Origin: a virus
Taxonomy: Duplodnaviria > Heunggongvirae > Uroviricota > Caudoviricetes
Direction: 5' to 3' (one strand)
IMG/VR virus record: IMGVR_UViG_2880378312_000001
DNA: 20,976 nucleotides
Below are positions 3,453 to 5,500 of the stretch, one piece after another (positions within the stretch are counted from its first letter, which is position 1; each line of letters opens with the position of its first letter). A model generated the notes under the pieces. That model was not told the origin of the DNA and did not search any database. It saw only the letters and a list, made by a program, of their open reading frames with translations. The position numbers and the translations under genes are program-made.

Positions 3453-3866
3453 ATGGACAAAACAAATATTAACTTAATGGAAAGGTATCTTCTTCTGCTT
3501 GATCGATTCGTTGATAAACTCGCTGAATCAGGTTTCTCAGAGCAACGAATTATCGAACAATCATATCTTTTTTGTGCAGGATTTTATATCAAATACCAGA
3601 GTGGTATAGAAAAAATGACCTTCTCCAACAGGGAGGTTGTTTTAACCTTTCTGCTACTTTCATATTATAGTCATATAAATAAACTGGATGATGATTTGAT
3701 CAACAAAGAGCGTATGAAGCATGTATGTTCTTCATTGATTAACTTTATAGTCAGTAATGGTAGCCGAACAGAGAAAGTCTATGCTAATGAGAAAAGGAAA
3801 TATGAGGCTTCAACTCTAAAAAGAGAATTATCGAAAAAGGATAAAAGGAAAAGATATAGGTTGTAG
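3453..3866 (+). CDS. Hypothetical protein (137 aa) with a highly basic C-terminal tail; alternative upstream starts at 3396 and 3444
   Basis: Long ORF in the AT-rich block with AAGGA 11 nt upstream of ATG 3453. C-terminus KKDKRKRYRL suggests nucleic-acid binding. No recognised family. Confidence 0.4.
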   Translation: MDKTNINLMERYLLLLDRFVDKLAESGFSEQRIIEQSYLFCAGFYIKYQSGIEKMTFSNREVVLTFLLLSYYSHINKLDDDLINKERMKHVCSSLINFIVSNGSRTEKVYANEKRKYEASTLKRELSKKDKRKRYRL

Positions 3867-4261
3867 TGTTTGTATGATTTTCATTAGACTTACTTAATCT
3901 ATAGTCTAAATTTTAATATTAGATTCGTAAATCTATAATTCCATGAATCTAATTAATGCTTAAAAGCATCCTCTAAGATGCTTTTACTGTTACCATGCAT
4001 ACATACCCAGAACCTTTAACAAACGATAATAGAGGGGAGTTGTGTATAACAACTCCCTGACCTTACTAAGGTTAGCGATGTTATTCAGCATCATTCTGTC
4101 AAAGATTTAATTTCTTTGAAAAATACTAATTCTACCCCTTAAGTTAATAACTTCTGCTTGATCGTGTATTTTGGTAAGTTGGAGTACAATTTTTTGATTG
4201 GATCGTCAATAAGAAAAAGCTAGAATCCTTAGAAGGACATAGATTTTCATAGGGTTAAGAT

Positions 4262-5500
4262 ATGACGATTGCGAAGGATAGTTCGACTGATGAAATCATT
4301 CATGGAAATGATCTCCGTGGAATGGATGATTTTTACATTAAGACAACGAGTTTTGAATGCCCATACGAGCCTTGTAAAATTAAAGCCACACCTTGTAGTT
4401 TTACTATGAAACATGTTAATCAATCATATTTCAGATATGGCGATAAACATAAGGATGGATGTGGTATTCATGATCCAAGATATAAAAACAATCATACTTC
4501 AAATGACGAAAGAAAACATAATTCGCCACCTGCTCCGGTTATATCACTTTTAAAAATTGATGTGAAACCAAGAGGTGGTGTTAAAAATGCCAGAAATATT
4601 AAAAATGAAAATCACAAGGATGAAAAAAAAGGTAATGAACATCCTGTATCTTCATCAAGTATTAAGCCCGTCGTTGACTATTACATAAATAATAGCAATC
4701 ATAATGAACAGCTATCAATCCCTCCATATGGCACGCGATCTTATAAAGATACATTTCAACTTATTTTTTACAAAAACAACATACGTTATTACAAACCTGC
4801 TATTTATTATGGTGTAGCCCAGTCTAATATTCGTCTGCATGAAGATTCAGATAAACATTGTATTACTTTCCTCGCAAGGGATAAGAAAACCCAAAAACCA
4901 TTTACGCTTGAAATTGATGTTTCTGACTGGAATAAAAGTCAGAAGGATGTGTTTTGGAAGGAATATGAAAAGCAAAGGAAGGAAGCTGATAGGTATTATA
5001 AGGGGCTTAAAGATAAAAGGAATGCTAAAAAATACTTGACGGTTTTCTTTTTTGGGATGCCGGATGAAAATGATAAGTTTCTATTTAAGACAAACCACTT
5101 TAAATTAGTATATGTGGCTTTCTTGGGTAAATTTGAAAGCTCATATAATGATAGTAATTATTACATTGAAAATGATCTGTCTGTATCATCATTGAATGAA
5201 CAACCCATTTCATTATCTGATATAGACCATAAAAATCATGAATATAATATTGAAACTTCATTAGATTTTAGTTCTCCTTTGCCAGAGCCAGAGCCAGAGC
5301 CAGAGCCAGAGCCAGAGCCAGAGCCAGAGCCAGAGCCAGAGCCAGAGCCAGAGCCAGAGCCAGAGCCAGAGCCAGAGCCAGAGCCAGAGCCAGAGCCAGA
5401 GCCAATAAGATCCTCTTTAAAGGAAAATACTGAGACTGTAGAAATGAACAGTAAAGTTTGGGGGAGGCTGAAAAAGATAATCACTTTCTTTAAAAAGTGA
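4262..5500 (+). CDS. Hypothetical 412-aa protein with N-terminal Cys cluster and C-terminal (PE)20 repeat
   Basis: Uninterrupted ORF in the AT-rich block. Cys pattern [13 protein letters not shown]...C (possible zinc ribbon), Lys-rich central region, then L-(PE)20-PI. No recognised family. Confidence 0.5.
5282..5401 (+). repeat. Perfect hexanucleotide tandem repeat (CCAGAG)x20, encoding (Pro-Glu)20
   Basis: 120 bp of exact 6-bp units read directly; in frame within the 4262..5500 ORF. Reverse strand reads as (GS)n, which is an artefact. Confidence 0.95.

Follow-up and report, generated by a model that had tools for sequence, protein, structure and literature searches.

A conserved backbone gene and a long-tailed Avs8B relative on a decayed GInt-like element of Escherichia coli O157:H7

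We analyzed two neighboring open reading frames, ORF1 (positions 3453–3866) and ORF2 (positions 4262–5500), both on the plus strand of a 20,976-nucleotide stretch of DNA filed as virus record IMGVR_UViG_2880378312_000001 (the window). The window is chromosomal DNA of Escherichia coli O157:H7 near ssrA, and the two genes lie on a dead copy of a mobile element that has a GInt-like gene layout. ORF1 is a conserved backbone gene of this element family, the last in the row of genes on its recombination side. ORF2 is an optional accessory gene, and profile comparisons identify it as a divergent, long-tailed, full-length member of the family of Avs8B, gene B of the PD-lambda-4 defense system. The original prediction had presented both genes as a cargo pair of a Tn554-type element. 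The proteins are as it described them (ORF1, 137–156 amino acids [aa] with a KKDKRKRYRL tail; ORF2, 412 aa with a (PE)20 repeat), and both genes do sit on a mobile element with several recombinases, but ORF1 belongs to the backbone rather than to the cargo. As one joint explanation, we see about even chances that what remains here is the stump of an integrative mobilizable element of GInt-like type that is fixed in the O157:H7/O55:H7 lineage, with ORF1 and ORF2 in the roles proposed below.

Positions 1–5700 of the window matched 389 of 5,426 complete E. coli genomes, 300 of them with at least 80% coverage at ∼100% identity. The RefSeq annotation of strain F8092B places the region between ypjA and ssrA. 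The gene order there begins with a DUF6387 gene, an AlpA-type regulator gene, a tyrosine recombinase gene that lies just 5′ of the window, a second recombinase gene, a frameshifted gene for a “DNA-binding protein”, and a 132-aa gene. It continues with ORF1, ORF2, a BamE-domain gene in the reverse orientation, a truncated transposase gene of the insertion sequence IS30, and a lambdoid prophage remnant that carries espW and espM2. The G+C content is 30–34% up to approximately position 5000, 39% at 5001–5500, and 39–49% across the next 4 kb.

The four genes that precede ORF1 resemble a ginABCD module. The ginA-like gene, just upstream of the window, encodes a first recombinase of 401 aa (PF00589). 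The ginB-like gene (1–1314, plus strand) encodes the second tyrosine recombinase of the trio (437 aa; PF00589, 2.9e-11; NF041502 integrase_1, 1.7e-95; also annotated in RefSeq). The third, ginC-like gene (1311–2956, plus strand) is frameshifted according to RefSeq and is split into ORFs 1311–2651 and 2552–2956, which overlap at 2552–2651. It is intact at 543 aa in other genera (loci L002–L007, L017, and L038 of our comparison), and it had no match in Pfam or NCBIfam. The small ginD-like gene (2957–3355, plus strand) encodes 132 aa, and its position and size (132–139 aa) are constant across the related elements. GInt islands are recognized by three recombinase-type genes with a small gene in fourth place (Bardaji et al. 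2017, PMC5385486), and they are reported from 7.5% of Escherichia replicons (Idola et al.). The element here has this arrangement: genes encoding 401 aa (PF00589), 437 aa (PF00589), 543 aa (without a Pfam match), and 132 aa follow one another with overlaps. We call the element GInt-like on the strength of this layout. The layout is not that of a Tn554-type transposon, as originally predicted, given the four-gene module with its three genes of recombinase size and the conserved fifth gene, ORF1.

Related elements in Klebsiella, Enterobacter, E. coli, Salmonella, and Photorhabdus share one layout: DUF6387 and AlpA genes, the 401- and 437-aa recombinases, a 543-aa gene, a 132–134-aa gene, and ORF1, followed on the other strand by a 94–221-aa gene, a MobA/VirD2-type relaxase gene, and a small NikA-like gene, and then by variable cargo with many defense genes. 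A survey of the neighborhoods of ORF1 homologues found the backbone order in Pantoea and Xenorhabdus as well. At the O157 locus (L001), the relaxase and the product of the 221-aa gene found no match; both are present in the related loci L017 and L018. The O157 copy is dead: its ginC-like gene is frameshifted, an IS30 remnant and remnants of prophage stand in place of its relaxase side, and its homology to the intact relatives ends at position 5928. The truncated IS30 transposase gene (5929–6669, minus strand) marks the break point.

The cargo of related islands (L002–L007 and L038–L041) lies beyond the relaxase module and comprises HxsD/radical-SAM clusters, an SMC-like gene with MComp1 and CTD1, genes for SIR2, patatin, PIN_12, and DUF3800 proteins, and AAA_15/methylase pairs. 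Some of these islands are integrated beside proA with a P4-type integrase.

ORF1 may start at either of two positions, which give 156 aa (3396–3866) or 137 aa (3453–3866). We favor the 137-aa start because RefSeq uses it, because an AAGGA sequence lies upstream of it, and because nearly all listed homologues are 137–140 aa long. The protein has five predicted helices and a basic C-terminal tail, with a pI of 9.5. ORF1 homologues formed at least 343 clusters at 90% identity; among the 120 listed, which come from many enterobacterial genera, all were at least 86% identical. An alignment of 41 sequences had a mean column identity of 94%. In all related elements examined (seven genera), ORF1 stood downstream of the ginABCD-like module. 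It is also better conserved than the recombinases: compared to the Klebsiella copy, ORF1 is 88% identical versus 53–71% for the four Gin-like proteins, and in E. coli O121:H19 it is 90.5% identical versus 32–47%. A homologue with 29–32% identity is kept even in a deeply divergent Pantoea/Erwinia type. The ratio of nonsynonymous to synonymous substitution rates (dN/dS) was 0.10–0.32 against non-saturated homologues and 0.48 in a saturated Pantoea comparison, values that point to purifying selection. Because it follows the recombinase module in every related element and is conserved more than the recombinases themselves, ORF1 is a backbone gene and not cargo.

The O121:H19 island (locus L015, NZ_CP031910, 4302–14198) occupies the same chromosomal site as the O157 element. 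Its DUF6387, AlpA, ORF1, and ORF2 genes are 89–98% identical to those of O157, whereas its Gin-like module is the divergent one just mentioned and is interrupted by IS600. Given this difference in identity, the recombinase module looks to have been exchanged between conserved flanks, or else two different GInts used the same target.

We found nothing credible for ORF1 in Pfam, NCBIfam, PHROGs, or PADLOC; the best match, to Hyccin (0.0013), was held to be spurious. A sequence search of solved structures returned nothing even at E-values up to 10, and hhalign comparisons with the proteins of its own element gave no match. Structure prediction, which had been proposed for both proteins, yielded an all-helical AlphaFold2 (AF2) model of ORF1 with a predicted local distance difference test score (pLDDT) of 82.7 and no informative fold match; for ORF2 it gave two folded domains. 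Neither protein matches a housekeeping or phage structural family; such a match is what the original prediction had named as speaking against it. We suggest a role for ORF1 in maintenance of the element: the protein, which is small, helical, and basic, may bind DNA or a partner protein and thereby help or regulate excision or transfer.

We next consider ORF2. Its residues 151–284 matched the PADLOC model PD-Lambda-4_B (PDLC03992) with an E-value of 1.7e-7 (28.9 bits; profile positions 161–294 of 303), a match that covers only the C-terminal domain. Searched exhaustively with a profile, a set of 1.84 billion representatives yielded 211 relatives at E ≤0.001, most of which aligned end to end. 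The ORF2-family profile aligned end to end with proteins of ∼300 aa (for example, P0192 with 1e-14 over positions 1–285), and the full-length PD-Lambda-4_B scores of proteins reached by this profile ranged from 1.7e-27 to 5.6e-86. All 10 relatives that were scanned matched PD-Lambda-4_B, five of them (302–310 aa) over the full profile (1.7e-46 to 5.6e-86); no Pfam domain was found in the scanned relatives. Thus, the direct PADLOC match together with the end-to-end profile links to strong members places ORF2 in the Avs8B family. The long-tailed class to which it belongs (at least 345 aa) comprised 47 of the 127 representatives classified by length; the other 80 were of the ∼300-aa class. ORF2 itself matched Pfam and NCBIfam entries only through its low-complexity repeat (PARP, TonB, and SslE), and a sequence search of solved structures found nothing.

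PD-lambda-4 is now named Avs8, and Avs8A is a Mrr-STAND NTPase that senses the major capsid protein. In a 2025 preprint, Avs8A alone sufficed for defense, and Avs8B was dispensable for defense against lambda and inactive alone; the analysis in that preprint found no similarity or homology of Avs8B to described proteins. None of the seven neighboring proteins that we scanned matched the PD-Lambda-4_A models. Avs8B is the only tested relative of ORF2, and the link of ORF2 to defense is weak. Of the defense, toxin, or host-interaction function that had been suggested as frequent in such cargo, the match to a PADLOC model is what holds; the behavior of Avs8B speaks against reading much defense into it.

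ORF2 is far rarer than ORF1: we found 19 homologue clusters among 5.8 billion (versus the at least 343 clusters of ORF1), and a second, word-indexed profile search found no further homologues. Its N-terminus, MTIAKD, is conserved in all homologues. Pantoea sp. GD03673 and Enterobacter genomosp. O carry intact O157-type elements, in which ORF1 is followed by the spacer, by ORF2, by the BamE-like gene (on the opposite strand), by the 221-aa gene, and by the relaxase gene; a Xenorhabdus littoralis contig has the same order up to its end inside ORF2. In Klebsiella-type elements, ORF1 is followed directly by the 221-aa gene and there is no ORF2. By this comparison of gene orders, ∼1.9 kb (spacer, ORF2, and lipoprotein gene) is thus an insertion between ORF1 and the mobilization genes in one sublineage. 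The position differs in Pantoea ananatis, P. brenneri, and Erwinia, where ORF2 follows the fourth gene and precedes ORF1. A Xenorhabdus bovienii locus (L008) has ORF2, an ORF1 copy (11227–11637) with an in-frame stop (SEK*ITEN), and the lipoprotein gene, and no recombinase module; ORF2 and the lipoprotein gene persist there without a working ORF1. A type of ORF2 that is 61% identical (67% by a second figure) is found in ∼250 E. coli genomes and in E. albertii, in other islands. ORF1 was absent within 10 kb of it in all five E. coli loci examined, and in three of the five it stands just upstream of QatABCD and CBASS. In Providencia, a copy comes after a type I restriction-modification system.

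In the O157 lineage both ORFs are intact, at ≥99% identity, in ∼300 O157/O55 genomes. The dN/dS of ORF2 was 0.10–0.20 (0.16 in the saturated Pantoea comparison). ORF1 without ORF2 in most elements, ORF2 without ORF1 elsewhere, and the flips in gene order together show that there is no obligate pair: the two genes are often neighbors and neither needs the other. The neighborhood survey that had been proposed as a check therefore bears out the mobile setting, which is constant, and frequent adjacency; the notion of a cargo pair does not survive it.

The AF2 model of ORF2 was built on a 17-sequence alignment and has a mean pLDDT of 62. The N-terminal domain (aa 1–70; 4262–4471, plus strand) is folded in the model, with a pLDDT of 63–80. 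ORF2 has four cysteines, C33, C38, C45, and C67, in the spacing C-x4-C-x6-C...C; the cluster had been noted before, with the first spacing correct and the second (C38–C45) given as x5. In 40 diverse relatives, only the initiator Met and C33, C38, H63, and C67 were invariant. The metal site of this domain is thus likely a CCHC zinc site, with C45 not a ligand. Outside the zinc site there was no invariant polar residue, so ORF2 is probably a binding protein and not an enzyme. The nearly invariant residues are hydrophobic or small (A4, F57, Y161, F165, W223, F262, F263, G265, and F275). The N-terminal domain gave weak, repeated hints of CoiA_N and of zinc ribbons; its likeness to CoiA_N stayed below threshold (two of 40 members, best E-value 0.17).

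A disordered basic linker follows (aa 71–132; 4472–4657, plus strand; pLDDT 25–39), the Lys-rich middle of the original description. It bears the motif NSPPAPxISLL and, with a dN/dS of 0.21–0.36, is the least constrained part of the protein. The next domain (aa 133–305; 4658–5176, plus strand) is β-rich and predicted to resemble an oligonucleotide/oligosaccharide-binding (OB) fold, with a pLDDT of up to 92. This is the portion that matches PD-Lambda-4_B. For ORF2, a search of a viral structure library gave weak matches to single-stranded DNA (ssDNA)-binding proteins, none of them significant.

The remainder of ORF2 is a long tail. Its acidic spacer, (PE)20 at aa 341–380, is encoded by an in-frame variable-number tandem repeat, (GCCAGA)20.7 (5281–5404, plus strand), and is flanked by segments of low pLDDT (28–43; aa 307–345 and 377–401). 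Other O157 genomes have 25–48 PE copies as inferred from match lengths; the number was checked for locus L001, which has 31. The O121 gene has two blocks of 13 and 21 hexamer units (∼37 PE dipeptides), and copies in other genera have 2–10 PE units. In E. coli O99:H6 (locus L016, 7975–9600), a 61%-type ORF2 has a long run of AEV tripeptides where (PE)n would otherwise stand, and it retains the terminal helix, KIWTGIRKLISFFKK. Since an AEV run can replace (PE)n, unlike repeat units have expanded independently at the same position. Changes of repeat length keep the reading frame. The repeat size, the copy range (∼20–48 in O157:H7), and the neighboring gene, set against published tables, suggest that (GCCAGA)n, very probably one of the markers applied to O157 in multilocus analysis of variable-number tandem repeats (MLVA), is the hypervariable locus TR2/Vhec1/O157-10, locus names that were not confirmed from primer sequences.

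The tail ends in a predicted cationic amphipathic helix (aa 399–411; 5456–5494, plus strand), helical in the AF2 model at a pLDDT of 53–54 and with a hydrophobic moment of 0.66. We compared the last 20 residues of long and short family members. The members of at least 345 aa (n = 47), in which this stretch is nearly always a cationic amphipathic helix, had a median moment of 0.73 and a median charge of +4, versus 0.47 and +1 for the ∼300-aa members (n = 80). A moment of at least 0.6 combined with a charge of at least +2 was found in 62% of the long members versus 7% of the short ones.

The AT-rich spacer between ORF1 and ORF2 (3867–4261, 395 bp) accompanies ORF2: each genome has a single copy, and the E. 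coli genomes with the spacer are exactly the 310 with the O157-type ORF2. The perfect 10-bp inverted repeat that had been pointed out in it is exact (plus strand; taaaagcatc at 3961–3970 and gatgctttta at 3977–3986, with a 6-nt loop). As RNA, positions 3961–3986 fold into a hairpin with a free energy of −11 kcal/mol (z-score −3.7 versus shuffles), and a comparable repeat arose in just 15 of 2000 shuffles of the spacer. The repeat is conserved in loci L015 and L017–L019, with a G-U variant in L020. A canonical intrinsic terminator was rejected at this position, where the U-run lies inside the stem and a terminator scan made no call. Two adjacent, GC-richer hairpins (4034–4075; −22.2 kcal/mol, z-score −4.35) have terminator-like matches on both strands. 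They lie in a ∼95-bp segment (approximately 4000–4094) that is found in the E. coli, Enterobacter, and X. littoralis spacers and is absent from that of Pantoea sp. GD03673. This segment is single copy per genome and thus not a dispersed repeat; the whole spacer was likewise rejected as a repeated element of the miniature inverted-repeat transposable type, with one copy per genome. The spacer had no family match in Rfam, and its count of promoter-like sequences did not exceed that of shuffles.

Between the convergent ORF2 and BamE-like genes lies a further GC-rich hairpin (5518–5542; −17.1 kcal/mol, z-score −3.1). In a comparison with locus L002, it resembles the hairpin found 3′ of ORF1 in elements without ORF2. 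The BamE-like lipoprotein gene (5576–5928, minus strand, with an open frame to 5971) matched PF04355 (2.1e-6) and phrog_3135 (3.4e-21). The O157 gene has lost its first nine codons and native start to the IS30 remnant, and the sequence beyond 5928 is IS30-derived. The protein is intact in L017 and L018, where it starts with MKKIIIVGFVFLTLAGC and has a lipobox. It might, as a guess, be an entry-exclusion-type protein. Farther along the window, a gene for a 252-aa multi-pass membrane protein (9671–10429) lies in a low-GC patch after the antiterminator Q gene, and espW, espM2, and DUF1076 (NleG-type) genes lie within the prophage remnant (16338–18898). Both regions are ordinary for the ssrA-linked prophage region of O157.

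We then looked at the wider family of ORF2. All relatives are on mobile elements, either islands or plasmids, and a tblastn search of 50,697 phage records found none. In Pseudomonas aeruginosa megaplasmids, relatives are flanked by a multi-integrase module on one side and by CBASS or dynamin-type cargo on the other. Vibrio pVA1-type plasmids have them within the gene cluster for the type IV secretion system (T4SS) and transfer, and an ssrA-linked island of Yersinia pseudotuberculosis has one beside a MobQ relaxase and TraD. On metagenomic contigs, genes for GAPS4, HsdR/McrBC, or an 1831-aa helicase have a relative just upstream. The partners vary, the mobile setting is constant, and Avs8B is dispensable; this suggests that the ORF2 family is a mobile-element gene that neighbors defense cargo rather than a component of one defense system.

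Our best guess, held with low confidence, is that ORF2 is a membrane-tethered nucleic-acid-binding protein that serves the mobile element. The terminal helix would park the protein on the inner face of the cytoplasmic membrane, and the acidic (PE)n spacer would leash it flexibly. Binding of nucleic acid, most plausibly ssDNA, would fall to the zinc and OB-like domains. ORF2 could then act on DNA that enters or leaves the cell, to the benefit of the mobile element, and would be neither a toxin nor a phage-killing effector. A broader proposal, which we think unlikely, is that the Avs8B family, ORF2 included, consists of widespread, hitherto unrecognized zinc-ribbon/OB-like nucleic-acid sensors at the boundary of core and cargo in mobile elements. 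Long-tailed forms would be leashed to the inner membrane at points where foreign or conjugative ssDNA enters, and the family would protect or establish element DNA or alert neighboring immune genes.

How do other explanations fare? The main rival is that members of the ORF2/Avs8B family are generic sensors or transcription regulators of adjacent defense genes, similar to the BrxR/CapW-type regulators found upstream of many systems, and that the O157 copy is an orphan whose client genes are lost. Short relatives are indeed found 300–470 bp upstream of, and co-oriented with, the GAPS4, HsdR/McrBC, and helicase genes; the 61%-type lies just upstream of QatABCD, Avs8B shares an operon with Avs8A, and the domains are of a nucleic-acid-binding type with no enzyme signature. 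However, deletion of Avs8B left lambda defense unchanged, and in intact O157-type elements ORF2 faces the convergent lipoprotein gene, not a defense operon. The place among T4SS genes in Vibrio plasmids does not fit either, and a membrane-anchoring tail would be unusual in a transcription factor. We regard a regulator as rather unlikely, and the remaining explanations as less likely still. A two-gene defense or toxin-antitoxin cargo module, closest to the original prediction, could draw on the defense cargo of related elements, on the PADLOC match of ORF2, and on the fact that the genes adjoin, in arrangements of three types, in Escherichia, Enterobacter, Pantoea, Erwinia, and Xenorhabdus. It is made improbable by the many elements with ORF1 and no ORF2, by the five E. 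coli loci with the converse, by the flips in order, by the hairpin-bearing 395-bp gap, and by X. bovienii, where ORF1 has a stop and ORF2 is intact. No catalytic-type residue is conserved, Avs8B is dispensable, and ORF1 lacks a PADLOC match. A type II toxin-antitoxin pair was rejected on the same gap, the solitary occurrence of each gene, and the flipped order.

That ORF2 is a secreted host-interaction protein, for example a type III effector with a proline-rich repeat whose gene shares its island complex with espW and espM2, is hardly credible. Pro-Glu repeats are known in secreted and surface proteins, weak low-complexity matches to PARP and TonB_N were seen, and type III secretion effector genes lie 11–13 kb away in the window. 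Yet those genes belong to a separate prophage remnant past the IS30 break, and elements of this kind also carry close homologues of ORF2 in Pantoea, Enterobacter, Citrobacter, Klebsiella aerogenes, and Moritella. Moreover, the repeat is unconserved (2–48 PE copies, or AEV), whereas the conserved zinc site and barrel are common to cytoplasmic Avs8B-like proteins. It is also unlikely, if less so, that both ORFs are functionless remnants in O157, in an island awaiting deletion. The state of the locus would agree with such decay (a frameshifted ginC, a lost relaxase module, a 5′-truncated BamE-like gene, and an abutting IS30 remnant). Nevertheless, both ORFs remain intact across the ∼300 O157/O55 genomes, and their repeat changes are in frame. 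Purifying selection across genera argues for function at the level of the element family, which need not extend to O157.

Several points weigh against the roles that we propose for a maintenance factor and a tethered DNA-binding protein. The maintenance or regulatory role of ORF1 derives solely from its position and conservation, as neither sequence nor fold gave an informative match. The many short relatives just upstream of co-oriented defense genes fit a regulator or sensor as well or better. The amphipathic C-terminal helix could be a protein-binding peptide instead of a membrane anchor. Finally, with the O157 element dead, neither ORF1 nor ORF2 may have a current role there.

Taken together, these results give a better description of two “hypothetical proteins” found in every O157:H7 genome: one is encoded by a backbone gene of a widespread island family of enterobacteria that ferries defense genes, and the other is a relative of Avs8B. 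They also provide a first domain picture for Avs8B, with a predicted CCHC zinc site, an OB-like barrel, and, in a large subclass, a leash and amphipathic anchor. A mobile-element gene that merely neighbors defense systems would explain why Avs8B is dispensable, and this bears on how two-gene “systems” in defense catalogs are read. If the MLVA identity is true, the marker alters the length of a protein linker.

Among known systems, the closest to ORF2 is Avs8 itself. Avs8B of E. coli ECOR07 (WP_000443183.1) and ORF2 have in common an N-terminal CCHC site and a C-terminal barrel domain, and both are found on mobile DNA next to defense genes. Avs8B has ∼303 aa, whereas ORF2 has 412 aa with an added acidic repeat spacer and cationic amphipathic C-terminal helix, and its identity to short family members is ∼17–24%. 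Avs8A adjoins Avs8B in the Avs8 system; the neighbors of ORF2 are ORF1, the BamE-like gene, and IS30. The element, in turn, resembles GInts (Bardaji et al. 2017, PMC5385486) in having a ginABCD-like module at one island end and variable cargo. In a canonical GInt, the cargo begins at the ginD stop codon, whereas here ORF1, a conserved fifth gene, comes after the ginD-like gene and is itself followed by a relaxase module. A canonical GInt also has an AT-rich 3′ end and imperfect direct repeats of 10–17 nt at its flanks, and its GinC combines a recombinase fold with an incomplete catalytic motif. Our recombinase module is preceded by DUF6387 and AlpA genes, and the O157 copy is broken, with its right end lost. 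Tn554 (tnpA, tnpB, and tnpC) is also site-specific and has several tyrosine-recombinase genes, then a small gene, then cargo. Compared by gene layout, it has two recombinases and TnpC, versus three recombinase-type genes (401, 437, and 543 aa), a 132-aa gene, and ORF1 in our element; the host range and the linked relaxase module are also unlike.

At the level of protein architecture, ORF2 recalls OB-fold ssDNA-binding proteins such as the MCM10 internal domain, RPA70 DBD-C, T4 gp32, and bacterial SSB. It is like them in its predicted barrel with a long helix between strands, its zinc site, its basic segment, and its acidic disordered tail. There is no sequence similarity to these proteins, however, and the zinc module of ORF2 is a separate N-terminal domain on a 60-residue linker. 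Its C-terminal tip is cationic and amphipathic where theirs is acidic, and DNA binding by ORF2 is only predicted. The tip is instead similar to the membrane-targeting helices of FtsA and MinD, which are not homologous to it but are likewise short, cationic, and amphipathic and form the very C-terminal end, behind a flexible linker. Computed identically, the peptides that we take to be these helices have moments of 0.78 (FtsA) and 0.38 (MinD), values between which the 0.66 of ORF2 falls.

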